Assembly: GCA_963674825.1 (NCBI GenBank)
Contig: OY771587.1
Location: 1-64,000 of the forward strand
Length of the DNA: 64,000 nucleotides
From: Candidatus Cloacimonadales bacterium
GTDB lineage: Bacteria; Cloacimonadota; Cloacimonadia; Cloacimonadales; JAIOQZ01
Reading direction: 5' to 3'
The stretch's first letter is position 1. Each line of letters starts with the position of its first letter. A model generated the notes under the pieces. It was not told the DNA's origin. It saw only the letters and a list, made by a program, of their open reading frames with translations, and did no database searches. A program made the translations under genes and the position numbers. This document shows positions 7,528-22,576 of this stretch, piece by piece.

Positions 7528-7599
7528 CATCATCAAATAATTTTCTTACCTTGTCTCAAAGATCATTGTAATCTGATAACACGATACATGGAGTGTGAC

Positions 7600-8604
7600 A
7601 TGAGAAAATACGTGCTGATGCTGCCAATATTACTGGCGGCGTTACTGCTGCAAGCTGCACAGCTGAACGTGGTCGGGGAGGTATTCTCCACCGTTTGTGA
7701 TGGTTGCGGTGGTGACTATTCTGTAGCGCGGTCGGCGCTCATTCAACTTTCTCAAGAATATCCATTCATCATTCCGGTGATATGGAACATGACCGATGAA
7801 ACTTCACCCGGCAGTGTGGATCGTTTTGAGTGGTATGAATCCACGGAAGATCCGTACTCGGCTTGGGGCGGCAGTCTCTTCTACGGAGGAGATTATGACG
7901 TTATCAACACGTTTTATGATTACTACATGGAGCTTGTAGGCGTACAGCCTCCGATGAAAATCTCGTCGCAAATGACAGTCAGCGGCGGAAGAGACACATC
8001 CGTTCTCATCGATTCAGATGTCGAGTTGTACGAAGATATCATTGCATCCGATGTGCGGATTTTCTTCCTGCTGACCTATCACGACCTGACGAATTACCAT
8101 GGCGTAGTGCTCGATAAGTCAGAAGAATCTGAGCTGCTCTCTTACACAGGCGGTTCGGTGACGAACTATGTCTATGAGTTCCCGGTTCTCGACGAATGGG
8201 AATTGGACAGATTACGAGGCGTGGTGATCGTACAGGACTGGAATTCTAAGGAAATTCTCCAGGCTTCCCAGGCAGAGATCGTGCTCGCAAATGACGAAGA
8301 AGATGTCGTGCCTCCTAGCGCGATGGACGTTCGGGTTTATCCCAATCCGTTCAACCCGGAGACGAACATCTCCTTCAATGTCACCGAGCTTGATCGCAAC
8401 AAAGAAGTAACCGTCGATGTGTTCAACATCCGAGGCCAGAAGGTTCGCAGCCTGTACCGGGGCATCCCGACTTCAGAGACTACTACCCTGTCCTGGAATG
8501 GTACGGATGAAAATGGCAGAAATGTCGGAAGCGGAGTTTACTACGCGGTCGTTCTTGTTCCTGGCCGCTCAACGAATGTCAAAAAGATGATTCTGTTGAA
8601 ATAA
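7600..8604 (+). CDS. Secreted Omp28/thioredoxin-like (CxxC) protein with FlgD-Ig/T9SS-like C-terminal domain
   Basis: Signal peptide; GEVFSTVCDGC; VVIVQDWNSKEILQA (Omp28-like end); YPNPFNPET...GSGVYY...KKMILLK. Confidence 0.72.
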   Translation: MRKYVLMLPILLAALLLQAAQLNVVGEVFSTVCDGCGGDYSVARSALIQLSQEYPFIIPVIWNMTDETSPGSVDRFEWYESTEDPYSAWGGSLFYGGDYDVINTFYDYYMELVGVQPPMKISSQMTVSGGRDTSVLIDSDVELYEDIIASDVRIFFLLTYHDLTNYHGVVLDKSEESELLSYTGGSVTNYVYEFPVLDEWELDRLRGVVIVQDWNSKEILQASQAEIVLANDEEDVVPPSAMDVRVYPNPFNPETNISFNVTELDRNKEVTVDVFNIRGQKVRSLYRGIPTSETTTLSWNGTDENGRNVGSGVYYAVVLVPGRSTNVKKMILLK

Positions 8605-8687: not shown

Positions 8688-11600
8688 TTATCGTGAAATC
8701 TCTTTCCTTGCCTTCGTTGAAGTCGAACGCACAGCCGATTCGGTGGAGGCGATAATGCGGTAGAACCTTCGCGTTGCAGATGGTTGCGGGCAAATCCAGC
8801 TGACTCTACCAGGTGAATACTCTGTCGAGATTGCACCATCGGAACTCACATCGCTGAATGTTCCGTCCGGTGAATCGGACGCCATCACGAGCCATGAATT
8901 TGCATACTGAACGGGGTCCCAGGACAGAACAAGGTCTTCCCCATCGAATGCAATGGTAATGTTGGCCGGTATCGCGATACCACCTGGCTCGGCGGTGAAA
9001 TTCCATACGTCCTTATCGCTAATTCCGTCGTATGGTATTTCGCCCCAACTCCAAATTGAATGGGATTCGATCAGCACATAATATGTTATTCCCGGTTCAA
9101 GTGTGTTTTGCGGGTCTACGTAAATTGAGAAACTATCATCGCTCACATTCAGTGAAGCAACCTCCATTTCTTCGAATAACGTATCGTCGTCGTAGCGGTA
9201 GATACTCAAAGAACCATCACTTGGCCATATCTGCATGTTGAACGTCAGCTCGAAGACTACACTGTCCTGCACTACCGATCCATCCGGAGGGGTTATGCCG
9301 GTAAGGTGGAGGTATTCGTTACTGCTGAGCTTATACAAACCATTGTAGACATAGTTGCTGTACGTGACGGTGTTGTCGGTAGAGTTGACGTTCGAAGGTA
9401 TTCCTGTATTCCAGTAGGTGTATCTGCGATATACCTGGCGCCAATTGACGTCAATGAGATCCATATGTGTTTCGTAATAGGGGTCAATCGGCTCAGCAGG
9501 CTGAAAGATAATATCGGTGTCGAAATCATCATCACTGAAAAGATGAATCGCCCAGAACTGAGCATCGAAGGAATTATCCCCATACACCGGATGATGCGGC
9601 ATTGTGGTAAACCGGGTCACGTAGGCATGGATATCCGAAGTCATCGATTGCACATCGAGCGATACGCCTGTCGAACCGATTGCATCAAGCCCTGTCTCGG
9701 TGATGGTGATCATGGATGGATCGATGTTCCCGACCTCGATTGTCGATTCGGCACGATCCGCGTCTCCGGTCGCGATTTCTCCGGATATCAAGTCGTTATA
9801 CTCTTCTCCCTCTTCGTTGAACTGAATATAGCTGATCAGGTTCTCGTCGGTTACATCCGCGATCCGGTGCATATACATGCGAACTTCGTCGGTTGTAAGT
9901 GCACGGTCCCATATCTTGATTTCATCCACTTTGCCATCGAAGAACTCGTTGGATGGCGGACATTGCTTTCCAACCCGGAACTCTCCGCCTTGCGGATTTC
10001 CAATAGCCGAGCCCCGTGACGCTTTCAGGAATCCATCGATGTAAACCTTCGTGTCGTCAGTGCTCTTGACAATCGTGTAATAGTGCCATCCGCTATCCAG
10101 AGGGAATTCCACACCCGTATTGTTCCAACCATCACCGCAACGTACATTTCCGTCATTGCTTACGCCCAGATAGAACTTAGTGCCATCTCCAGCCATCTGT
10201 GAGACGATCTCACGGAAACCCGTCTGATCTTCATCCGCAAGCGCCCACAGTGAAAGAGAGAAATCACCACTCGGCGGGATCAAGCCGTCTTCGAACATGA
10301 TATTCTGCGAGATACCGTCAAACTGCACACAAGTACCCGACTCGATGCTGACATCCATCGTCGTGAACGACCATTCTCCGCATACGTTGATACCAGGGAA
10401 AGCGTTGCCGAAGAAAGTAAATGCGTCTGGATCTACCAGGGCATAGTATTCCGTATTCAATTCAAGTGATGTCGCAGGTGCAAATGTTGCAGTCTCATCA
10501 TCAATCGTGGCATCAGAAGCCTGTATCTCGCTGATAAGGTTATCGCTCATGTCATAGATACGGATAAAGCCGGATCCAGCAACCACTTCTTTATCGAACG
10601 TGAGTGTCATTTCTGTCCGAACGCTGGTGCCATATGTATCATTCGCAGGAGCCATGGCAAGCAGTGTTGGTATTGTCGTATCCTTGCCGATAACGAACTG
10701 CCCCGTCTCGGTTATGCTCTCGAACAGAAATTCCATCTCAGTTGACAGACTTGTCGCATTACAGGCATATTCCCACTCATAGATGGAGTTTGATGCCCGG
10801 TTACAGAGCTTGAAATAGCTCGAATCGTCCATACCAACTTCCTGATTGGGTGTTAGTTCCAGCGAGATTGTGCTGGTAGCGCTGTCGAAGTTCTGGAAAA
10901 TCCAGTAACAACTGGAAAGGGTTGACTCGATGACAGGCAGAATGTTTGGCGCAGAATCGAGCCTGGACAACATGATTGTCGTGGGCAAATCGGATTCGTT
11001 TACGTGGACGACATCATCCAGCATCGGGTATTCGCCAGTTTCATTGATTGTCAGGATTTCTGAAGCCCCATCGGCAATCGGTGCACTGGTGATGACATGC
11101 GAACAATCCTCGACACTACCGCTGGCATGACCAGTCCAGTCGTAACACGTGTTGCCGGATTCTTCATCGAATTTCCAATATGAAACCAGATCTGCATTCG
11201 TCTCCGTGATCGGATGATGCATGTTCAAGCGAATTTCTTCGAGCGTTCGTGCGCTCTGCCATATCCGGACATCATCGATGAAACCATTCCAAGAGCGATC
11301 AAGTATTTCACAATTAGCACCGATGATCACGGGAAAGTCATTCACTGGAATCGTTCCTGCACATGTTCCAGCCACATCCAGCACGCCATCAACATAGAGG
11401 CGAAGTTGCGTACCATCTTTTACCGCGGCAATGTGATGCCACTGGTTATCGTTGATGTTAACCGTACCGATAATGTTGTTCGTGCTTCCATTCCCGGCAG
11501 CAAACTGGAGCGTATTGCTTGTCGAATAACGTTGCAGACGCCAGCTTGTATCGCCCTTGGTCACGATACCATTATACATATTGTTCAGGCCATCTGCTTT

Positions 11601-13250
11601 TATCCATGCCTCGATAGTTAGATTTCCACTGGTGAAATCGAAGAGAGACTCGTTATTGACAACAATGTAGTCGTTATCTCCATAGAAATGGATGCAATTT
11701 CCAGCAAGTGAAACACTTCCAGTCGCGGTAAAGTTCCAGGTCGTTTCGTCATCAATTCCCATCACAGGCATGTTCTGGTCGTCTGTAAGAGCTCCATGAT
11801 CAAGCTTCATCGAGTAATAGCCGCCTTCCTCGAGCGGATTGGCTGGCGTGAATGTAATGGTTGCACCTGAAACCATCGAGTCATCCAGCGGAATTGTCTC
11901 CACCAGCGCACCTTGGCGATAGAGGTAAGCGTTACCACTTACCGCCGATATCTGACACGTGCTACCACCACTGTAATCGTGCGCAATGGTAACCGATAAC
12001 TCGGGCGTTAACCCTGTGACATCTTCGTCCGATGGTTCGATGACGCTGATATCCGATTTCTCCTGCGGTACGATACCATATACCAAACGATTACGTGTAT
12101 TGTACGATGGATCCCAATACTGATCCACATCGAAGCTGAAGGTTGATGTACGAGTACTGACATCATACTCGGATGCTGTGTCCCAGTTTTGCCAGAAGCT
12201 ATCGTAAGTATCAGGAACGAAATAGAGGTTCAATTTCTCCGGAAACACCGCAAAATACTCACCGAGTTGCACATTCGTCTGGAAGGATATCTGATCGACT
12301 GACCAGGAGGCGACCCCGCCGTCACGATAGTCGTACAGGTAGTACACAAAGTCATCGGTATAATCAAGGATTGAATCTGGCTTAAGTGTCTTGTGTACAT
12401 AAACATCGTGAAGGCCAAACTCTGTGGGAATGTGAAGCGAAACGCCATTATCGAAGGTATAACTTCCGTTGGACTGGATTATGATATGATCGACAGTGGT
12501 CAATCCCGTGGGAGAATTGCCATTCACGAACGTCGCACCATTGCATATGCTACCCTGAATCGTGTCGCTGCTTCCACGATGTCCTTCCAGAACTGTAGCA
12601 GATTGCGAATTGAACTGGATGTATGTGTAAAGATCCGGCTCATTGCAAGGCAATGTAGCATGCATTTTCTGGCGTATTTGTTCCTTTGTAAGCTCAACAT
12701 TCCAAACTTTGAGCTCGTCTATCTGCCCAGAAAAATATTCTTCGTAAACCGCCCACCAGGAGAAGCTGTATTGCTTTCCAATCCAGGATGTGTTCATTAA
12801 TGGATTCCGGATCGTTCCGCCCTTTAGACTCGCAAACTTGCCGTCGATATACAGATAGGTTTCACTTGCGCCTTTTACGACGGTGAAATTGTGCCACTTG
12901 TTGTCATCCGGCCATGGCACGCCGGTATCCTGCCAGTCATCACCGACACGAACGTTACCGCTCGAACCGCGACCAAGATAGAAGTGTGCCCCAAACGGAT
13001 TCCAGAAGTACATGGACCAGCTATTCTGCTGAGCAAGAACTTCAAACACCTGATCGGCATCCTCATCGGTTCTCACCCACACTGACAGCGTAAACACACC
13101 TGAAGAAGGAACAAGGTACTCATCCGGAAGATTTACATACTGGTTCTGACTGCCGTCGAACTCCATGGCATCACCGTTGTAGTTGTACCAGTATAAGCCA
13201 AACACCAGATTCGGCAGCAAACACAAAAGAAGAAATAGAATGCTTCGCAT
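8688..13250 (-). CDS. 1520-aa secreted surface protein: three (LamG/ConA-like + SbsA-type Ig) units and a C-terminal beta domain
   Basis: Signal peptide; three LamG motifs (WHH/WHN...LY.DG...G.IDE/DD.W); three Ig-like units (..P..L.....YY......W.FT); C-terminal LSWDPV...RRFYRIIA. Confidence 0.82.
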   Translation of the reverse strand: MRSILFLLLCLLPNLVFGLYWYNYNGDAMEFDGSQNQYVNLPDEYLVPSSGVFTLSVWVRTDEDADQVFEVLAQQNSWSMYFWNPFGAHFYLGRGSSGNVRVGDDWQDTGVPWPDDNKWHNFTVVKGASETYLYIDGKFASLKGGTIRNPLMNTSWIGKQYSFSWWAVYEEYFSGQIDELKVWNVELTKEQIRQKMHATLPCNEPDLYTYIQFNSQSATVLEGHRGSSDTIQGSICNGATFVNGNSPTGLTTVDHIIIQSNGSYTFDNGVSLHIPTEFGLHDVYVHKTLKPDSILDYTDDFVYYLYDYRDGGVASWSVDQISFQTNVQLGEYFAVFPEKLNLYFVPDTYDSFWQNWDTASEYDVSTRTSTFSFDVDQYWDPSYNTRNRLVYGIVPQEKSDISVIEPSDEDVTGLTPELSVTIAHDYSGGSTCQISAVSGNAYLYRQGALVETIPLDDSMVSGATITFTPANPLEEGGYYSMKLDHGALTDDQNMPVMGIDDETTWNFTATGSVSLAGNCIHFYGDNDYIVVNNESLFDFTSGNLTIEAWIKADGLNNMYNGIVTKGDTSWRLQRYSTSNTLQFAAGNGSTNNIIGTVNINDNQWHHIAAVKDGTQLRLYVDGVLDVAGTCAGTIPVNDFPVIIGANCEILDRSWNGFIDDVRIWQSARTLEEIRLNMHHPITETNADLVSYWKFDEESGNTCYDWTGHASGSVEDCSHVITSAPIADGASEILTINETGEYPMLDDVVHVNESDLPTTIMLSRLDSAPNILPVIESTLSSCYWIFQNFDSATSTISLELTPNQEVGMDDSSYFKLCNRASNSIYEWEYACNATSLSTEMEFLFESITETGQFVIGKDTTIPTLLAMAPANDTYGTSVRTEMTLTFDKEVVAGSGFIRIYDMSDNLISEIQASDATIDDETATFAPATSLELNTEYYALVDPDAFTFFGNAFPGINVCGEWSFTTMDVSIESGTCVQFDGISQNIMFEDGLIPPSGDFSLSLWALADEDQTGFREIVSQMAGDGTKFYLGVSNDGNVRCGDGWNNTGVEFPLDSGWHYYTIVKSTDDTKVYIDGFLKASRGSAIGNPQGGEFRVGKQCPPSNEFFDGKVDEIKIWDRALTTDEVRMYMHRIADVTDENLISYIQFNEEGEEYNDLISGEIATGDADRAESTIEVGNIDPSMITITETGLDAIGSTGVSLDVQSMTSDIHAYVTRFTTMPHHPVYGDNSFDAQFWAIHLFSDDDFDTDIIFQPAEPIDPYYETHMDLIDVNWRQVYRRYTYWNTGIPSNVNSTDNTVTYSNYVYNGLYKLSSNEYLHLTGITPPDGSVVQDSVVFELTFNMQIWPSDGSLSIYRYDDDTLFEEMEVASLNVSDDSFSIYVDPQNTLEPGITYYVLIESHSIWSWGEIPYDGISDKDVWNFTAEPGGIAIPANITIAFDGEDLVLSWDPVQYANSWLVMASDSPDGTFSDVSSDGAISTEYSPGRVSWICPQPSATRRFYRIIASTESAVRSTSTKARKEISR

Positions 13251-13260
13251 AAGTTACTCC

Positions 13261-13566
13261 TTATTTATCAATTAAATCCATGATTTGTTTCATTACCTGT
13301 TTTTCTGACAATATGCCCAGGCGATCAGATGCGATTGGGGTTGATCCGGTATTATCGATTACGAGGAAATGCGTATCAGGATAGCTGTCGGTAAGACTTA
13401 CGATGAAATCATTCAGATCAGCAGACCGGAAGATAGCAAGTGCGATCCTGTTTCTGCTTAAAATGCGTGAGATGTCGTGCTCCGATACCGCCAGATAGAT
13501 ACTGATATCGCGGTACGATTCGCTGAGATCGCGCTCGAGAAAGAAGTTGTATACAAGAATATTCAT
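13261..13566 (-). CDS. Small hypothetical protein, possibly a degenerate receiver-like fold
   Basis: AGGAG RBS before ATG 13566; MNILVY...IALAIF...YPDTHFLVI alternation resembles a CheY-like fold without acidic pocket; ends 10 nt before the LamG gene. Confidence 0.55.
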   Translation of the reverse strand: MNILVYNFFLERDLSESYRDISIYLAVSEHDISRILSRNRIALAIFRSADLNDFIVSLTDSYPDTHFLVIDNTGSTPIASDRLGILSEKQVMKQIMDLIDK

Positions 13567-13588
13567 ACTGGCTCCTATATGCAATAAT

Positions 13589-13605
13589 TGCATTAGTAGT
13601 GCCAG
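13589..13605 (-). promoter_or_regulatory. sigma54 (-24/-12) promoter
   Basis: Minus strand CTGGCAC-TACTA-ATGCA, exact GG-N10-GC spacing, about 22 nt upstream of the ATG at 13566. Confidence 0.72.
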
Positions 13606-13688
13606 CAGTGTATTTGCTTGATATTTAAGGGCTTATCTTTTCAGTATGTATTATACGGATGATATTAAATCAATCTCAATCAGTAAAA

Positions 13689-13749
13689 TGTCGATTTCGT
13701 CACGCAAATCACATTATTGCGGGAATATGCATGACGATTTCGTCACGCA
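13689..13749. promoter_or_regulatory. Two palindromic upstream activator (enhancer) sites
   Basis: TGTCGAttTCGTCAcgca (13689-13706) and TGACGAttTCGTCAcgca (13732-13749), 43 bp apart, 85-145 bp upstream of the -24 box. Confidence 0.65.
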
Positions 13750-16113
13750 TCAGCGGTCGCGCTTGATCTCATACTTGATCATGCGACGCTCCAGCGATTT
13801 CGGTGTGATCCCTAACAGCTTGGCTGCGTTACGCTGATGAAAGCCTGTCTGCTTCAACGCTCTGAGCACCATATCCCGCTCGAGAATATCAAGCGGTGTG
13901 ACGGAATCGTCACGTACAGTCACTTCCGGTATGGTAAAGCAGGAAAGCTTGAGCGTAGATGAATTGGAGAGGATTACCGCGCGTTCGATCATGTTCTTGA
14001 GCTCTCTGACATTCCCCGGAAAAGAGTAGCTCATCAGGGCCGTTTCCACCTGCTTTTCGATCTTGACGATCTTCTTTTTGAGATGATTGCCGAAATGCTT
14101 CACGAAGTATTCGAGCAGCGCGGGAATGTCTTCCACTCGTTCTCTCAGTGGTGGGATATTAATCACGAAAGATGATAGACGGTAGTAAAGATCGGCGCGG
14201 AACCGGTTTTCATCGATCATTTCCTGGAGACTGTCGTTGGTAGCGCTTATGAGGCGGAAATCAACCGGGATCTCACGCTCGCTTCCCACCGGAATGATCT
14301 TCTTGCTCTCCAGAACGCGCAGAAATTTCGATTGTAGCTGGGGTTGCCAGGTTCCCACTTCGTCCAGGAACAACGTTCCTTCATTTGCGATTTCAAACCA
14401 CCCGGCTTTATCGTCTTTCGCTCCGGTGAAGGCATTCTTTTTGTAGCCGAAGAATTCGCTTTCAAAGAGGGTTTCGGGAATACTTGAGACATTGACAGCG
14501 CAAAAATTTTCCCCCTTGCGTTCGCTGCAATTGTGGATCGCACGGGCAACGAGCTCCTTGCCGGTACCGGTTTCGCCCGTGATCAGTACCGATGTCGATG
14601 GCGCTTGAGCTACGCGCTGCACGAGCTCAAGAATACGCTTCATCTGTGAGCTTTCGCCGATAATGGTCAGACCGAGCCTCTCCTTGATCTCATGGTTCAG
14701 AAAGTCGTAGCTGATCTCCGATTTACGTAGCTGGTTCAGCGTCTTCTCCAGCTTGACCTTCTGTGCGGAAATCTCCTGATTCTTCTTCTCGAGCTCAATT
14801 GCTTTATCGCGGTAGATCTCGGCTTCTTTTTCCTTTTGCTCGACCTCAAAAGCCGCCTGCATCTCCGCAATCTTCTGATTATAATCGTTCCTGGACTGCT
14901 CTCGAAGCGCTTCGATCTGCTTCTTCTGGTATTCCACTACTTTATTTACATCGCCTTTTGCAGTATAGAGTTCGGAGAAAGTCTTATATATCTCGGGATT
15001 TTCGTTCTCACCCTGGTTTTCCATCGCCATGTTCAGGGCTGCTTCCGCTTTGTCGCAATCCTTCAAAATTAAAAAGATAGCAGCCCTACTATGGTAAACA
15101 TTCCTCAGGTAATGCTGCTGCGCACTATCGGTAAAATACTCCTCCGCCCTATCCAGATATGCGAGAGCCGTTACGTAGTCTTTTTCTTCAACATACACAT
15201 CACTGATGTCGAGGTAATTCTTGGCTGCAACGCTCCTGAAGCCGGCTTTCTCGCTCATTACAATCGAGCGTTTGAACCACTCTTTCGCCTTGTCGATTTG
15301 CATCTGACGCATATAGAGTAGGCCGATATTGTTCGTAGTGGATGCCTGGGAAAAGCTCTCTTCCTTGGTCGGTTCCGCCGATAGTGATTTCTGGTAATAT
15401 TCGAGCGCTTTATCAAAATTGCGTTTATCGGAGTAGATATTGGCGATGTTGTTGTAGATATGGGCCTCGAGACTTCTATAATCCATCTGCTCGCCAGTCT
15501 GGAGAGCAAGCCTGTAATACTCGATCGCTCGATCGTATTTATTCAGATTGTAGAAGATTGAAGCGAGATTGTTATATGCGAAGATGAGGCTCGTGCTTCC
15601 GAGTCGCTCACCGATTTCCACACCTCTGCGAGTAATCTCCATGGCCTGAGTATAGTGTCCCAAGTGCAAGTGCTCAACACCGATATCGGTCAATACATGC
15701 CCAAGGTATTCTTCTTTGCCCAGACAATCGAGCATTTCAGCCGCTACCAGGTGATAGCGCATAGCGAGTTGATACTCGCGTGCCATCTGATATTCGGCTC
15801 CCAAATGAAGATACAGCATAGCGATCAGGAAATCATCGCCTTTATTCTCAAGCTCGTTAAGCACAAGCTGGAAATGCTTTTCCACGCCTTCGTCACGCTC
15901 ATGATAGAAATGATTCAGCATGATCAGAATGTAGTAATCGATCCGGGACTGCCGACTGAGAGAGATCGATTCGATTGGGTGATCCTCAATGAATTGCGTG
16001 ACAGCTTCCGGATTTTCTTCGATCTGATGCAGGCATTCTTCGAATAGAGCTTTTATCCGTTGTAGCTCAGGTACGTCTTTTATCTTCTCTTGAATGGATT
16101 CAAGCAGCTTCAT
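13750..16113 (-). CDS. TPR-repeat sigma54-dependent transcriptional activator (bEBP) with Fis-type HTH
   Basis: TPR array (YNNLASIF, YNNIANIY, NNIGLLY), coiled coil, GETGTGKE, ESEFFGY.KNAFTGA, LFLDEV, FRADLYYRL, PGNVREL, AAKLLGI. Confidence 0.92.
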   Translation of the reverse strand: MKLLESIQEKIKDVPELQRIKALFEECLHQIEENPEAVTQFIEDHPIESISLSRQSRIDYYILIMLNHFYHERDEGVEKHFQLVLNELENKGDDFLIAMLYLHLGAEYQMAREYQLAMRYHLVAAEMLDCLGKEEYLGHVLTDIGVEHLHLGHYTQAMEITRRGVEIGERLGSTSLIFAYNNLASIFYNLNKYDRAIEYYRLALQTGEQMDYRSLEAHIYNNIANIYSDKRNFDKALEYYQKSLSAEPTKEESFSQASTTNNIGLLYMRQMQIDKAKEWFKRSIVMSEKAGFRSVAAKNYLDISDVYVEEKDYVTALAYLDRAEEYFTDSAQQHYLRNVYHSRAAIFLILKDCDKAEAALNMAMENQGENENPEIYKTFSELYTAKGDVNKVVEYQKKQIEALREQSRNDYNQKIAEMQAAFEVEQKEKEAEIYRDKAIELEKKNQEISAQKVKLEKTLNQLRKSEISYDFLNHEIKERLGLTIIGESSQMKRILELVQRVAQAPSTSVLITGETGTGKELVARAIHNCSERKGENFCAVNVSSIPETLFESEFFGYKKNAFTGAKDDKAGWFEIANEGTLFLDEVGTWQPQLQSKFLRVLESKKIIPVGSEREIPVDFRLISATNDSLQEMIDENRFRADLYYRLSSFVINIPPLRERVEDIPALLEYFVKHFGNHLKKKIVKIEKQVETALMSYSFPGNVRELKNMIERAVILSNSSTLKLSCFTIPEVTVRDDSVTPLDILERDMVLRALKQTGFHQRNAAKLLGITPKSLERRMIKYEIKRDR

Positions 16114-16337
16114 GTTTCCTCATTTTACCCTTTTCGCGAACATGACGAATCTGCCCGTACAATGTCAATGAAGAATTTTTTTCTGCACGCTTTACGAACT
16201 ATATGCAATTGGCAAACGGAGGCTTACCCGGAGCTCGAGCGCTACTTTCTCCACAAAGCAGCGTGGACGTCTATAACAAAAAAAGGCTCGCCTGAAATCG
16301 ACCCTTGATGCAAGTCCTGTCCCTTGTCTCCTGGAGA

Positions 16338-18941
16338 TTATTTCATCATCATCATCTTTTTTACGCCAACCGGCTTGCCATCCACCTTCATGCGATAGAA
16401 ATAGATGCTGGAAGATACGATATTGCCAGCGTCATCATCACCCTGCCAGGTGACATCGTGACCACCCGACTTAAGCAGATCGTCGGTAAGCAGCTTCACG
16501 CGCTGTCCACGTACGTTGAACACCTCGATGACCACATGGCTATCCTGCGCCAGGCTGAAACCGATGCGTGTCACGGGATTGAAAGGATTCGGCGAATTGC
16601 CGAGGAGCATATTCGAATATTCCGAGATTCCGCCTTCATTCGTTGCGCCACCAAAGTAGAACCAGAACGGTGCAGCTTCTCCGGTTGTATAAACAGCAAA
16701 GATGCCGTACGTATAATCACCGGGAGATAAGTTCATATCCCAGTACTCTGTCTCTGTCTGAAGTTCAACAAGCGTCTGGCCGTTTCTCGTGATCTTGTAG
16801 CCCAATAATGAGCGGTCACCTGGAGCAGGTACCTGCTTTCGCTCTTTTACGGCGTTGCGTGTTAATGAGACCGTGCTTTCTTCCGTGATGAACTCGATGC
16901 AATCCAGCTTGATCCAGTACATATTGACACAGTCGCAGTGATTGAACGCGACATGGCAAGTCGAACCGGAATATTCGCTGAGATCGAGCACAACCTGGTG
17001 CCATCCAGCGTCTTCAAGTGTTTCTTCAAACAGCAACTCGGTAAAATCCTCCGGGGCAATACCCGTAGTCGAGAGGCGAACAGCATAATGATCCCAGACC
17101 CAGTCCGGATCCTGTCCGGCAAGCCAGAAGCTGAACTGTGTATTACCGTTGATCTCGAGGGGTGGAGTAATCAGCCAGTTATCCGGATACAATGGACCGA
17201 TTTCGTTGATATACGATGCCGACCCGATTGCATGCTCGCCCTCATAGACTTCCCAGTCTTCGGGAATAATCTCCCACGTGTAGCCATCTTCGTCTTCATC
17301 GAGTACAATCCAGTCTTCAGGAACAACGCCTTCCTCGAAATCTTCGTAGTAGAATAGATCAGGTGGATCATTGGGCGGATACCAGCACATGAACAAATCA
17401 TTCCCATCGACATAACCTTCTCCAATTGTCACCGGCAGCAGCGTCTCGGTCAGTTCAACATAGTATTCCTCACCCTGGAGATCTTCAATGAGTACATTCT
17501 CCTGAAAATAGTCGTCAAAACCATCGAGCGACACGGATAGTGTGTATATTCCAAGCCAGACCGGATAGAAGAACGCAATCCCATCTTCGTTTGTAAAGGC
17601 TTCATAGACATGGTTTTCGTCGCCATCGATGTTTTCAAGATTCACATAGGCTCCCGCCGCGCTTTCGCCTGAATTCGTGGAAACATGCACTTCATAAACA
17701 GGACAATAGATACGAGGCATCACATTCGAGAAGATTGTGCCGGTCGTATTGCCGTCTTCGGATTGATATGCCGCCGCCCATTGGTGTTCACCCCACTCCG
17801 CATCATCCCATGTTTCATCAACAAACGTCGTATCGGGATAAGTATAATCCCCTTCACCGAGGTAAATCCACTGAGAGGGATCGTCTGCATCATCTTCATA
17901 GAAACGGTAGAACGTGATGTGGTAAGTTGAATCAGGGCGGTCGAGTCTGGTCGTAGCTACTTCCGGCATCTGGAATCCACCAAAATAGACCGGAGCTTCC
18001 GAGATCATCTCACGGGCGACATCGCTACGTTCAGACTGTCTGGCATCGTATTCGATTTCTCCATAGTTCAAGCCTTCAGCCCGAATCGCGAAATTGAGTG
18101 GATAACCGTATTCATCTGGATCATGCCAATCGTTCGAACTGGCAGCGTTTGTCACCCACTGTGTACCGGAAATGTATTCATACGGATCGCCCGAACCGTC
18201 GTCAGTACCCAAACCGAGGAAACCTACCGGATAGTTCAAGCAGATGAAGAATCCATTGGGTGCAGAAATCGTCTCGTCCAGCTCCAGCGTGTTCCATTCG
18301 AGGTCTGTGTTTCCAATACTTGTAGCTGAGAACAGCTCATCATTTGTATCTGGCAAGCCTGAGCCGTCCAGGCCGTAAATATACAGATCGACCGCGTTAT
18401 GCGGGCCGCCTTCGTCAGTCAAGTACCACTTGACCGAATAGATTTCAGCATAGCAGAAATGAGCTGCGCCAAGGCGCACATCTTCGCCTCCACCTGCATA
18501 TCCAAGCTGTCCAGTGATAATGCCGTCGTCGTAACGGAACTCGGTCATATCACCATTCCCGATCGACCAATTCAGCGTCACAGACTGATAATCAGAGCTT
18601 TCTGTCGCGACCAGTTGAATCGGCTGAGGCGGTATATAGGTTATAACAATGTCGCCTAAATCGATGTTGTAATATTCAACGAACACTTCACTGTTGTATT
18701 CTTCATAACCGGAGGTACGGATACGGATTTCGTATGTCTGATTTTCGGTCACCCACTCGAAGTAGAAATAGCCATCTGCATCTGTATATTCAGTAAAGCT
18801 ATTATAACCCGTCAGATCAACGCGCGCACCCTCGATTCCGACATCCAAGTTATCGCTTCCCAAGCACCTTCCGCATACCGTCGTAGCCATCAGGCCAGTT
18901 GCCACAAAGACTATCAGCAAAAAAATACTCATTCGTTTCAT
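16338..18941 (-). CDS. Secreted multidomain surface protein (carboxypeptidase-regulatory-like, cleaved-adhesin-like, Fn3-like, FlgD-Ig CTD)
   Basis: Signal peptide; EDFEEG...W...D.DEDGYTW...PDNWLITP...HYAVRLSTTG; SPNPFNPVT...KKMMMMK. Confidence 0.8.
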   Translation of the reverse strand: MKRMSIFLLIVFVATGLMATTVCGRCLGSDNLDVGIEGARVDLTGYNSFTEYTDADGYFYFEWVTENQTYEIRIRTSGYEEYNSEVFVEYYNIDLGDIVITYIPPQPIQLVATESSDYQSVTLNWSIGNGDMTEFRYDDGIITGQLGYAGGGEDVRLGAAHFCYAEIYSVKWYLTDEGGPHNAVDLYIYGLDGSGLPDTNDELFSATSIGNTDLEWNTLELDETISAPNGFFICLNYPVGFLGLGTDDGSGDPYEYISGTQWVTNAASSNDWHDPDEYGYPLNFAIRAEGLNYGEIEYDARQSERSDVAREMISEAPVYFGGFQMPEVATTRLDRPDSTYHITFYRFYEDDADDPSQWIYLGEGDYTYPDTTFVDETWDDAEWGEHQWAAAYQSEDGNTTGTIFSNVMPRIYCPVYEVHVSTNSGESAAGAYVNLENIDGDENHVYEAFTNEDGIAFFYPVWLGIYTLSVSLDGFDDYFQENVLIEDLQGEEYYVELTETLLPVTIGEGYVDGNDLFMCWYPPNDPPDLFYYEDFEEGVVPEDWIVLDEDEDGYTWEIIPEDWEVYEGEHAIGSASYINEIGPLYPDNWLITPPLEINGNTQFSFWLAGQDPDWVWDHYAVRLSTTGIAPEDFTELLFEETLEDAGWHQVVLDLSEYSGSTCHVAFNHCDCVNMYWIKLDCIEFITEESTVSLTRNAVKERKQVPAPGDRSLLGYKITRNGQTLVELQTETEYWDMNLSPGDYTYGIFAVYTTGEAAPFWFYFGGATNEGGISEYSNMLLGNSPNPFNPVTRIGFSLAQDSHVVIEVFNVRGQRVKLLTDDLLKSGGHDVTWQGDDDAGNIVSSSIYFYRMKVDGKPVGVKKMMMMK

Positions 18942-19014
18942 ACCTGTCTCCTGATCAATCTGTTTTGATTGAAGTTACTCGTTCATTATATCTCAGATTG
19001 AGAACAAATGCGAA

Positions 19015-19068
19015 TGAAATCATCTTCTGAATCCGCCCTAGATGCACGTCCGACCCTTCGACTCCGCT
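19015..19068. repeat. Partial copies of two intergenic repeat families
   Basis: tgaaatcatcttctgaat (19015-19032) is identical to 34834-34851; ccttcgactccgct (19055-19068) is identical to part of the 23802-23827 repeat. Confidence 0.6.
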
Positions 19069-19167
19069 AACATGAATTCGCTGCGCAAATGGTTTTCGTT
19101 CTCACTTCGCGAGAACCGAAAAAGGCTTTCGTTCGACCATTTCGTTTTAGCTACGCCAAAGCCGAAA

Positions 19168-22100
19168 TTACTTCATCATCATCATCTTTTTAACGCCAAA
19201 CGGTTTACCGTCCACCTTCATGCGATAGAAATAAATACCCGACGATACAGTATCACCTGCGTCGTTATCACCCTTCCAGATGACGGTCTGACTACCAGCA
19301 TTCAAAAGATCGTTGGCAAGCAGCTTCACTCTTTGACCCCGCACATTGAATACTTCGATAACCACATGGCAGTCCTTCGCCAGGCTGAAACCGATACTCG
19401 TCTCGGGGTTGAAAGGGTTGGGAGAATTGCCGAGGAGAGCGGTGGTATATTCGGGTATCGTTGTATCGTTGGTAGCAGTAGGTATAATTGTATAGGGTTC
19501 GGACTCACCGGTTTGGTAAACTGCATAGATATTGTAAACAAGGTTCCAATAACAATCATAGTCGAAGTAGCATGTCTCTGTCTGTAATTCGACAATGGTC
19601 GTACCATCTCGCTCAATACGGTATCCTAACAGCGAGCGGTTCCCCTCACTTTTGGCCTGTTTGCGCCCGTTGATATTCCGCACATCGGTAACCTCTTCAT
19701 CGAAAGTAATGATACCGCCCGGATATTCAATCGTGATGTTATCGATGAAGAAGGGATAACTCAATCCATCTTCACACACACAATTCCATGCGAGTTTTAC
19801 TTCCTGGTCTGCGAAATTGCTCAGATCAACACAGTACTCCTGCTCAAAAGAGTTCAATCCTTCATCCAACTCACTTGCATCCCAAAGGATATCCCAAGTA
19901 TTCCCGTCATCCTCAGAAATTTTGAGATACATATGTTCGTCTTGATCCGATCCCTCATGACAAATAGACCACCAGGTTACACGGCAGTCTTCCCAGCATG
20001 TGAACGAAGGTGTGATTAGCCACTCGTCCTGCGGATTATCAGAACTCCAAACACCACAATAATAGTTACCCAATGGATCATAATAGGCATCAGAGTAATT
20101 TGTTACTGTGAAGAAGCCAGGTACAAACCATGTATCCTCTTCGCAAATCCCACTGACTTCCCAGCCAGCCGGCATGATTCCCGCTTCAAAATCTTCCGTT
20201 ACGGGTTTAAATGGAGGATACCACCACAAAGACGCTACCGTATAGAAATCCGATCCACACCCTTCTGTCACCGGCAGCAGCAACTCTTCCAATTCAATGT
20301 CCAGGACAACGTGATCGTCTGCGCTGAATTCAAGCACCAGGTTCTCCTGCGTGTAATCGTCGAACCAGGGGAGAACCACGGACAGGTCGTAGATCCCGGG
20401 CCACACAACAGGAAATGTAAGGCTACCATTGGCATTGGCGTGACCAATATAAATATGCTCATCATCTCCGTCCTGGTTTTCCAGGACAACCGAAGCGCCT
20501 GCCGCGCTGTCACCCGAATTGGTCGTCACATTGAGCGTCACAACACCCAACGGTGGACAATGCGAAATGATGTTGGAGGACAAAGCCCCGGTTTCGCCAT
20601 ACTCCGTTTCGTAGAGCATTACAAACTGGATCTCGCCCCAATAGTCTCCCCAATTCTGGTCAACATATGTCGTGTCGTTCTCCGTGAAATCGCCTTCGTA
20701 GATAAAGTTCCACTGAGACGGATCATCATGATACTGATAATCGAACCAGTAGAAAGTCATGTGGGTTGTCATTCTGGAATACCGTGAATGCTCAGGCATC
20801 ACGAAACCATCGATATAGAGCAGGTCTCGCTGCGGTAATCGGTGGGAGGAGATGGAGCGTTCGGGAAAATCCAGCTCGCCGTTGTTTTCACCTACAGCGC
20901 GAATTGCGAAATTAACCGGATAGCCATATTCCTGCGGATCGTGCCAGTCATTTGTACTTGCGGAGTTTGTCACACACTGTGTACCGGGCGTGAAATTATA
21001 CGGAGCACCCTCACCGTCGTCTGTGCCTAACCCAAGAAATCCCTCAGGATAATTGATACCGATATAAAATCCTTCCGGCGCATTGACAGGCGCAGCCAAT
21101 TCGTACGTATTCCATTCGAGATCGGTATTGGCCACATCGGTGACCGAAAAAAGTTCGTTATTGTAGTCCGGCAGGCCGTTTTCATCGAGCCCATAAATAT
21201 ACAGGTCAACCATGTCGTGTGGACCGCCCTCGTCTGTCAGGTACCACTTGATTTCATAGATCTCAGCGTCATTGTAATGAACTGCACCGAGCCTTACATC
21301 GTCACCGCCACTGCCGTATCCGAGTTGGCCAGTGATATAGCCGTCGTCGTACCGGAATACATAATCATCGGGGTAATCATATGTCCAGGACAGAACGACT
21401 TGCTCCTGGTCAGGCGATTCGGTTGCGATCAGGTTGTGCGGAACCACGACCCGGGCATAGAGCATGATCGTCCCAATATCAATATTGATATCCGACACAT
21501 ACATCTCGGTCATATAAGACTGATAGTCAAATTGACCATCGTCGTAGCTTACATCGACGGTATAGATACGGCCTGCGGGGATATCTTCAAACAAGAAATC
21601 GCCTTCGACTGTAATTGCCTCGAAGACATAGGGATAGCTTTCGAGCACTACCACTGCGCCATCAAGTCCCTCATCGGGATTGATATTCGATGTGACATAC
21701 CCGGAAACATTAACCGTGTATAGATAAACAACAGCAGTCACCGGTATCGAATAGCCGTCCGAGTATAATGTCCTGATTCCGTAGGTGTACACACCGTCAG
21801 GAAGATCCACATCTGTAAAAGTCGTATCTGAGACATCAAGCGTGGCGATGATATCATCGTCTCGGGTGATCTCGAAGCCTGTCAGTTCGCGATTTTGTTG
21901 TGGAACACCCCAACTCAGGACAACGTCTCGACCATCGAGGAGCGCAGAAAACCATAATACTTGCGGAAGGGATTCCACCATCAGTAGATCGCCCATATCG
22001 ATATCCGAGCTTCCTATCTCAAGGTAGATTGTATAGGGCAAATATCCATAGACAACTGCATTGACTTCATAGTCTGCAACTTCTTCTACACCGGTGATCG

Positions 22101-22284
22101 AGAAATAGCCATTGGAATCCGTGGATCCCGAGTAGTTTCCATATTGCCCCGTCATGGTTATCTCGACATCGGAAATGCCGGAATCGGGAGTTTCTGAATC
22201 GACGCAGCGACCCGACACAGTGACAGTAGCCAGCAGCGTTGTTGTAAATAGAATCACAGAAAGTGCGATCATAATGCGTATCAT
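19168..22284 (-). CDS. Secreted multidomain surface protein, tandem paralog of 16338-18941
   Basis: GGAGG RBS before ATG 22284; shares FRYDDG.ITGQLGY...KWYLTDEGGPH...LGLGTDDG, TNSG.SAAGA and CTD blocks with its neighbour. Confidence 0.8.
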   Translation of the reverse strand: MIRIMIALSVILFTTTLLATVTVSGRCVDSETPDSGISDVEITMTGQYGNYSGSTDSNGYFSITGVEEVADYEVNAVVYGYLPYTIYLEIGSSDIDMGDLLMVESLPQVLWFSALLDGRDVVLSWGVPQQNRELTGFEITRDDDIIATLDVSDTTFTDVDLPDGVYTYGIRTLYSDGYSIPVTAVVYLYTVNVSGYVTSNINPDEGLDGAVVVLESYPYVFEAITVEGDFLFEDIPAGRIYTVDVSYDDGQFDYQSYMTEMYVSDINIDIGTIMLYARVVVPHNLIATESPDQEQVVLSWTYDYPDDYVFRYDDGYITGQLGYGSGGDDVRLGAVHYNDAEIYEIKWYLTDEGGPHDMVDLYIYGLDENGLPDYNNELFSVTDVANTDLEWNTYELAAPVNAPEGFYIGINYPEGFLGLGTDDGEGAPYNFTPGTQCVTNSASTNDWHDPQEYGYPVNFAIRAVGENNGELDFPERSISSHRLPQRDLLYIDGFVMPEHSRYSRMTTHMTFYWFDYQYHDDPSQWNFIYEGDFTENDTTYVDQNWGDYWGEIQFVMLYETEYGETGALSSNIISHCPPLGVVTLNVTTNSGDSAAGASVVLENQDGDDEHIYIGHANANGSLTFPVVWPGIYDLSVVLPWFDDYTQENLVLEFSADDHVVLDIELEELLLPVTEGCGSDFYTVASLWWYPPFKPVTEDFEAGIMPAGWEVSGICEEDTWFVPGFFTVTNYSDAYYDPLGNYYCGVWSSDNPQDEWLITPSFTCWEDCRVTWWSICHEGSDQDEHMYLKISEDDGNTWDILWDASELDEGLNSFEQEYCVDLSNFADQEVKLAWNCVCEDGLSYPFFIDNITIEYPGGIITFDEEVTDVRNINGRKQAKSEGNRSLLGYRIERDGTTIVELQTETCYFDYDCYWNLVYNIYAVYQTGESEPYTIIPTATNDTTIPEYTTALLGNSPNPFNPETSIGFSLAKDCHVVIEVFNVRGQRVKLLANDLLNAGSQTVIWKGDNDAGDTVSSGIYFYRMKVDGKPFGVKKMMMMK

Positions 22285-22576
22285 ATCAACCTCCAGAGAT
22301 ACCACATTATTGAAAATCTGAAAGAAAACTGCAAGTATTTTTTCTTCAGGCCGTATGGTTAATAATTCTTGTGTCGTTTCGAACGCCGTCTTCGAGACAT
22401 AGCATCAATTGAGAAGAATCGCGAAGCGCGAATTAATTCCGACGAATATTTCATAATTTACGCACTACTCATCAGATACACTCGCGCTCTGAAATCCTAT
22501 CAATTTTTCACGAGAAAAATGTTGCAGAACAGGCATCAAAACATACTATATCAGTAGTATTGGAAGGAGCAAGTGG

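Follow-up and report, generated by a model that had tools for sequence, protein, structure and literature searches.

Whether an activator gene and the genes beside it form one regulatory unit, and what part a small protein of this unit plays, are the questions raised by a locus of a Candidatus Cloacimonadales bacterium (phylum Cloacimonadota; assembly GCA_963674825.1). The stretch of DNA analysed, called the window here, comprises the first 64,000 nt of contig OY771587.1, and the locus occupies its positions 8,688-16,113. All parts lie on the minus strand, in the order of a gene for a tetratricopeptide repeat (TPR) activator of the sigma-54 type, paired palindromes, a -24/-12 box, an open reading frame (ORF) of 101 amino acids (aa) and the gene of a 1520-aa secreted protein. 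This order had been given in an initial annotation made from the sequence letters, and it was recovered as stated. The locus belongs to a cassette that recurs in the genome, and we consider it somewhat probable that its TPR-sensor activator drives a sigma-54 operon of a pseudo-receiver (the 101-aa protein) and a secreted protein, with the pseudo-receiver feeding back as a brake. The arrangement itself is real, conserved and apparently undescribed, and it is built on the known sigma-54 mechanism.

The activator gene (13750..16113) encodes a soluble sigma-54 enhancer-binding protein of 787 aa, in which no membrane segment was found (highest 19-residue hydropathy 0.89). Pfam recognized TPR families, Sigma54_activat at residues 484-651 (PF00158, 216 bits, E 3.7e-64), an AAA lid at 657-724 and HTH_8 at 742-781. 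In the structural model, helical hairpins extend across residues 16-386 (14956..16068), the presumed sensor, and are followed by a single 92-residue helix, the coiled coil, at 389-480 (14674..14949). The first half of this linker helix is common to soluble TPR-kinases, and its second half is specific to the cassette clade. The AAA+ sigma-54 interaction domain (13942..14664) carries the Walker A motif GETGTGKE (residue 513), the Walker B motif FLDEV (582), an R finger, sensor II and, in place of GAFTGA, the loop motif NAFTGA (560). The recognition helix of the Fis-type helix-turn-helix (HTH) domain (13771..13890) reads TPKSLERRM (770-778). Foldseek matched the model to the ZraR entry 1ojl (E 4e-16), and only AAA+ matches were among those listed for the full-length model in the fold search. 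Walker A and B, R finger and sensor II were intact in all 27 cassette TPR-activators considered below, and the Phe and Thr of the loop were invariant in them, the first loop position being variable.

We found that this layout is repeated in the source genome, which is a single contig and 99.6% complete. BLAST with the AAA+ domain gave 24 matches there, 10 of them of 710-831 aa. Six TPR-activator copies have a gap of 140-263 nt, a -24/-12 box, an ORF of 96-137 aa and a secreted protein of 1064-3160 aa; a seventh copy has a soluble TPR-kinase and a receiver-activator as its regulators, and two more pairs of small ORF and giant gene stand without an adjacent regulator. A profile of 24 small ORFs was searched in 151 genomes of the phylum, where the weaker matches were ordinary receivers, most of them within frames some 450 aa long. 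The 49 loci retained consist of the 9 own copies and the 40 strongest short-frame matches outside the source genome (about 7 weaker ones were left out). Upstream of these 49 small ORFs were a TPR-activator (27 loci), a receiver-activator with a TPR-kinase (6), a receiver-activator with another kinase (1) or no adjacent activator (15). The next gene had a signal-peptide-like start in 43 of the 49 loci, and the cargo was at least 1000 aa long in 33.

Because these 49 loci had been chosen by their small ORF, the association was also tested from the activator side. Among 19 activator loci of the first round, 14 had the small ORF and 2 lay at contig ends. When 232 genomes were searched with a profile of the linker helix, 26 gave matches; this added 13 new loci, 2 of them truncated at contig ends. 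All 11 evaluable new loci contained the small ORF (E 0.008 to 6e-23) together with a sigma-54 box scoring at least 11, and in 10 of the 11 the next gene was signal-peptide-like by eye. The initial annotation had proposed that relatives with the TPR, AAA+ and Fis domains be collected. Its reading, a one-component sigma-54 activator that comes with an enhancer and promoter, a receiver-like gene and the gene of a secreted protein, is supported as a conserved arrangement of Cloacimonadota. As a control, 82 activators were taken from a genome sample that spanned the whole collection, and neither the TPR module nor the small ORF was found in any of them; the scan with the full alignment had returned generic activators, which were used for this purpose. 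A metagenome scan gave 2 loci, both generic activators and by eye without the cassette.

The promoter was considered next. The box CTGGCAC-TACTA-ATGCA (13605-13589) has the exact GG-N10-GC spacing, and its start is predicted near 13578. A sigma-54 score of at least 12 within 100 nt upstream was reached by 43 of the 49 small-ORF loci and by 63 of 2273 other long ORFs, the box lying mostly 37-50 nt before the start codon. The gene rpoN, whose lack was named in the initial annotation as a ground for rejection, is present in the source genome (E 7.3e-50), and 219 of the 232 phylum genomes have it. Of the 80 nt that precede the box, 70% are A or T, and among them lies one site resembling that of integration host factor (IHF; 13611..13623), with one mismatch to the consensus; such sites occurred in 17 of 46 loci against 8.3 in shuffled sequences, a modest excess. 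No RNA record was listed as covering the region. Sigma-54 control of the operon is very likely. It is extremely improbable that the box is incidental and that transcription of the operon depends on the sigma-70-like element TTGAGA-N18-TATAAT (13679-13650), which the initial annotation had missed. This element scores 11/12, and the NAFTGA variant of the activator also speaks for it. Against it stand the positions and frequency of the sigma-54 box, the invariant Phe and Thr of the loop motif and the wide occurrence of rpoN; moreover, sigma-70-like sites were not above chance in our scan (10 found, 13.6 expected), and the element is by eye absent from the two closest orthologues.

Two 18-bp palindromic sites were found between activator and promoter, with starts 43 bp apart and both exact for TGCGTGACGAAATCGWCA. 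The proximal site (13689..13706) lies at -97 and the distal one (13732..13749), with the core GACG-N4-CGTC, at -140 from the TGGCAC box. When up to 3 mismatches were allowed, TGCGTGACGAAATCGWCA gave 4 matches against 0.16 expected; since this pattern came from the two sites themselves, their chance occurrence is better judged by the homologues. Where the recognition helix of the activator reads xxKxxERR, exact GACG-N4-CGTC was present in 13 of 15 gaps (22 sites; shuffled mean 0.025); where the second residue of the helix is Arg (xR), it was present in 0 of 12 gaps. Eight of the 12 xR loci had exact GGTC-N6-GACC, GGAC-N6-GTCC or GTCC-N6-GGAC instead, the motifs of both groups having been chosen on these same 15 and 12 loci. 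In the new loci, GACG-N4-CGTC was found in 4 of 4 cases with xxKxxERR and in 1 of 7 with xR, where the exception sits within a GGAC-N6-GTCC site. This natural code between recognition helix and enhancer was thus upheld on new loci. The proximal site stands 97 nt before the TGGCAC box not only in the window but also in two orthologues, two paralogues and one orphan locus. The change of the enhancer sequence with the recognition helix and the recurrent -97 offset are strong, though indirect, evidence for the palindromes as HTH targets. By analogy with other bacterial enhancer-binding proteins, the HTH domain would very probably bind the -97 and -140 sites, the DNA would loop, and the -24/-12 promoter would be opened at the cost of ATP; an enhancer 100-150 bp upstream, a contact through GAFTGA and looping by IHF are described in PMC7057263.

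The reach of this activator seems to extend beyond its own locus. An orphan operon at 1.249 Mb (L008) has the identical 16-mer CGTGACGAAATCGTCA at -97, and the cargo it encodes shares 43% identity with that adjoining the orthologue of the window activator in G043; it is likely that the window activator also drives this unlinked operon. Cross-talk with a paralogue at 2.11 Mb, which has the same enhancer core, is likely as well, because its recognition helix is nearly identical. The term "self-contained" in the initial annotation was therefore too strong. At 1941438-1941840, a sigma-54 box and two CTGACGAATTCGTCAG-type palindromes 213 bp apart precede the gene of a 581-aa secreted protein, where a related palindrome lies about 98 nt upstream of the promoter and no small ORF is present; this is likely an unlinked target of one cassette activator. 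Within the coding sequence of the orphan pseudo-receiver (L008, 1249044-1249100), two further enhancer-type palindromes were seen 41 bp apart.

What, then, is the small protein? The 101-aa ORF (13261..13566) had no Pfam match, and a search with this single sequence returned only itself, so profiles were required. Its model (predicted local distance difference test, pLDDT, 81) was matched by VIA to 3cnb with Z 11.0 and a root-mean-square deviation of 2.5 over 101 aligned residues, and 49 of the 50 VIA rows listed were receiver-type entries as judged by title or general knowledge. Foldseek also returned receivers, none under E 0.001, and hhalign aligned the small-ORF profile with the receiver of a TPR-kinase-partnered activator of the source genome (95.9%). 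In the window copy, the phosphoacceptor position is occupied by Arg, the acidic pocket by Asn-Phe and the Thr/Ser position by Ile, and the Lys position falls in a gap. Across the 49 copies, the phosphoacceptor Asp was kept in 10 and the first pocket Asp in 2, and the Lys in none, its column being poorly aligned. The modelled protein is thus a receiver fold without the phosphorylation residues. Copies beside two-component systems have a fuller C-terminal half; those adjacent to TPR-activators lose this half and keep the motif S(I/V)YLAVS.

Judged across these loci, the pseudo-receiver is the most constant target of the cassette. In the closest orthologue the small ORF is kept beside a different cargo, and the pattern of the homologues indicates that the pseudo-receiver stays with the activator while the cargo is swapped. 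The similarity of the small ORFs correlated (Spearman) with that of AAA+ (0.45), HTH (0.44), coil (0.33), TPR (0.31) and cargo (0.19), for which no significance is claimed. The rate pN was lower than pS in 11 of 11 small-ORF pairs, and omega was 0.07-0.45 in 6 unsaturated pairs, with the highest values in the window's clade. A prediction of the complex of activator and small protein scored 0.52 against 0.00 for the best control, without a reported interface; its runs agreed in 93% of contacts, with a partner pLDDT of at least 69. The mark it passed had been attained by 116 of the 157 solved pairs, as opposed to 2 of the 215 with mismatched partners; at scores up to 0.60, only 18 solved pairs and both mismatches attained it. 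The complex prediction gives weak support to contact between pseudo-receiver and activator.

By analogy with PspA, HrpV or FleN, the pseudo-receiver, as the first product of the operon, might about equally well dock on the activator and damp it or fail to do so. We tentatively extend this idea to a receiver domain that was released from an ancestral two-component activator and would now act in trans as a phosphorylation-free anti-activator, so that sets of TPR-activator, enhancer and pseudo-receiver would be self-limiting channels, insulated by the enhancer-helix code and choosing among interchangeable giant surface proteins.

The other explanation to be weighed at this point is that the cassette is real and the pseudo-receiver does not act on the activator. 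It would be an output that binds other signalling proteins, such as the DHp of the many TPR-HisKA proteins, or would be a decaying relic kept as a translation leader of the cargo. We regard this as unlikely, although it accounts for a number of our observations: the small ORFs are poorly conserved and have ragged C-terminal halves, omega rises to 0.45, 15 of 49 copies lack an adjacent upstream activator, 16 of 18 scanned TPR-sensor proteins have HisKA without a HATPase match, and in the window only 10 nt separate the stop of the pseudo-receiver gene from the start of the cargo gene. The purifying trend in all 11 pairs argues against it, as do the S(I/V)YLAVS motif peculiar to the TPR-activator-adjacent type, the weak support of the complex prediction and the retention of the pseudo-receiver with the activator both where the cargo differs and where a gene lacking a signal peptide comes next. 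The latter was seen in L223 (G151) and L085 (G108), in which activator, enhancer, promoter and pseudo-receiver are intact.

Several findings weigh against the activator-driven cassette with a braking pseudo-receiver. Four TPR-activators of the source genome (L009, L010, L011, L012), which belong to a separate clade, have no pseudo-receiver, and 3 of 17 evaluable first-round loci have no small ORF within 1.5 kb, the same three genomes having one elsewhere. The genomes are related and several loci come from the same genus, so the counts are not independent. The canonical loop is altered to NAFTGA in 13 of the 27 activators and to NAFTNA in 2. In the small-ORF family, which forms 70 clusters at E up to 1e-10, Met1 alone is invariant, and the window's own copy is weakly constrained (omega 0.38-0.45). 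Finally, the complex score of 0.52 falls in a band that is more often wrong than right, and it possibly reflects solved structures of receiver-AAA+ (NtrC1) or Rap-Spo0F.

The input side of the activator raises the question of its ligand. The TPR array diverges fast, with 48% identity in the closest orthologue against 86% for AAA+. It contains a conserved Asn ladder (N181/182, N221/222, N261/262), which is a mark of TPRs that bind extended peptides, and this fits the binding of an extended polypeptide by the predicted TPR groove. The best natural sequence matches in the PDB were the TPRs of LGN/Pins (E 8e-17), which bind extended peptides; Rap proteins ranked far below (E 8e-5 to 1e-4). A cytoplasmic polypeptide ligand in the groove would, with fair probability, release the AAA+ domain through the long helix. 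We found the TPR-plus-linker module in 33 proteins of the source genome, with AAA+, kinase, HisKA-only or cyclase outputs; by its spread it is therefore a general input module of the lineage.

Two alternatives concern the nature of this ligand. In the first, which we consider improbable, the groove senses unexported cargo or another polypeptide of the secretion pathway, as an export checkpoint like that of VasH and Hcp, and a role of the pseudo-receiver is optional. The Asn ladder, the LGN/Pins matches and the secreted nature of the targets agree with it, and Hcp directly represses VasH (PMC10482370). It is opposed by the finding that TPR similarity barely tracks cargo similarity (0.15), by the swapping of cargo between orthologues and by the general expectation that cargo with a signal peptide leaves the cytoplasm early. 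In the second, suggested in the initial annotation, an exported and re-imported peptide would bind the array and switch the activator, as in RRNPP quorum sensing. A cytoplasmic TPR array with an Asn ladder and weak matches to Rap are in its favor, and RNPP_C matched the activator at 20.8 bits, under the cut-off of 26.5. Beside the 27 activators, a heuristic scan of 500 nt upstream and of the downstream gap found no same-strand small secreted ORF with a ribosome site, and none of the 36 TPR-sensor genes of the source genome had a convincing secreted-peptide gene beside it. Moreover, the adjacent small gene has no signal peptide, and kinases and a cyclase use this TPR-linker module too. Because no peptide gene was found beside the 27 activators, RRNPP-type quorum sensing is unsupported, and we consider it quite improbable.

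A quick tree of 61 AAA+/HTH rows placed the 27 cassette TPR-activators on one side of a branch (SH-aLRT 99), with an adjoining group of receiver-activators, most of which have TPR-kinase partners (SH-aLRT 88). The tree was midpoint-rooted and its rows were chosen by cassette, so the direction of change is not readable from it. Based on these relationships, it is plausible that the activator originated by fusion of the sensor of a TPR-kinase to the partner activator.

The cassette has features in common with several known systems. PspA is encoded by the first gene of the target operon. Anti-activators of this type are encoded within or next to the regulon and remain associated with their activator, and the pseudo-receiver has both features. 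Inhibition of sigma-54 activators in trans is described for PspA and HrpV in PMC7057263, and FleN damps FleQ according to PMC8528422; the likeness of the pairs PspF-PspA, HrpRS-HrpV and FleQ-FleN to ours lies in the partner proposed to damp the activator. In contrast to them, our system combines a partner of receiver fold with an activator that also carries a sensor domain, and modelling gives a weak prediction of their binding. NtrC1, ZraR and NtrC4 also combine AAA+, a Fis HTH, a long linker helix and an enhancer about 100-150 bp upstream (PMC7057263, in part). In the window activator, however, the place of the receiver is taken by some 370 residues of TPR array, and the receiver-fold protein is separate, is encoded by the first gene of the target operon and has no phosphorylation residues. 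The PEP-CTERM system PrsK/PrsR/PrsT likewise has a sigma-54 activator, an enhancer motif, -24/-12 boxes before many genes of exported proteins and a TPR protein; in that system many genes depend on a single membrane kinase/regulator pair, and its TPR protein is a lipoprotein (PMC1569441), whereas here each soluble TPR-activator paralogue adjoins its own enhancer variant and a pseudo-receiver. RRNPP regulators (Rap-Phr, NprR, PlcR) have a cytoplasmic TPR array with an Asn ladder, and Rap also binds the lone receiver Spo0F (3q15); our system differs in its lack of an adjacent secreted peptide gene, its RNPP_C match under the Pfam cut-off, its sigma-54 output and its longer array. VasH of Vibrio activates operons of secreted proteins through sigma-54, acts on unlinked clusters as well and is subject to repression by a product of its regulon (PMC10482370), but the window activator has another sensor domain and secretion route, and cargo as ligand is without support here.

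A full-text literature search, in which most matches were judged by title and the start of the abstract, gave no account of a cassette of TPR-activator and pseudo-receiver. PMC3162934 contains no occurrence of TPR, and the "Tpr" of PMC5552954 is a resistance marker. Our results thus describe a complete regulatory unit, with activator, predicted binding site, promoter, partner and targets, in a largely uncultured phylum, and define a pseudo-receiver family. If the pseudo-receiver does inhibit the activator, a receiver-fold anti-activator would be added to the known controls of sigma-54 activators; if the self-limiting channels exist, they would be a new way to regulate such activators and would form a surface-switching network across the phylum. 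Its compactness makes the cassette suitable for reconstruction in E. coli.

The cargo of the window (8688..13250) has a signal peptide, 3 LamG stretches and Big_5 of the Ig type by Pfam, and no catalytic domain was found in it. These features stand behind its earlier designation as an adhesin, a label that is based on domain content alone. The cargo of the 8 other source-genome copies contains LamG, GLUG, Chlam_PMP, Ig, FG-GAP or lamin-tail domains and no catalytic domain above the cut-off. The 1520-aa protein lacks an NxPNPFN-type tail, and SprA-like and PorP-like genes are present in the source genome. Its C-terminal domain of about 100 aa (8730..9029), FN3-like by eye, ends 47 source-genome proteins, many of them giant and secreted, and is a candidate second sorting or anchoring domain. 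It is an alternative ending to the NxPNPFN tail, which resembles those of FlgD and of type IX secretion (T9SS) and occurs in 117 proteins of this genome, and it is in some cases followed by a short basic tail. Neighbouring genes of the window (16338-22305 and 7588-8604) encode secreted proteins of 867, about 1036 and 333 aa with FlgD/T9SS-like tails, one of them with a cleaved-adhesin domain.

Some further observations were made on the regulators. Upstream of the activator gene, TTGACA (16163..16168) is likely part of its own housekeeping promoter, and a possible autoregulatory half-site was by eye not kept in orthologues. In L103 and L112, the pseudo-receiver sits between the kinase gene and the receiver-activator gene behind a perfect sigma-54 box, a layout that suggests autoregulation of the activator. 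In L044 (G087), a 48-codon ORF with a signal-peptide-like start was seen by eye about 65-210 nt after the stop of the receiver-activator. Downstream of two of the four activators L009-L012 there is a sigma-54-like box, together with small ORFs of another kind, 67 and 95 aa long. The HisKA (DHp) of the 16 TPR-sensor proteins without a HATPase match (L196-L207, L209 and L210 among the set) lies near the C-terminus; most of these HisKA-only proteins are soluble and end in a short tail of the Y-S-D-x-T-x-M-V-x-F type, and three of their genes stand in tandem at 3.149-3.154 Mb. They are possibly split kinases, phosphatases or kinase inhibitors. L004 (1839576-1841198), flanked by the genes of two cassette cargo proteins, encodes a 540-aa protein that by one motif seems to resemble a serine recombinase, and this gene is a possible route for the shuffling of cassettes.

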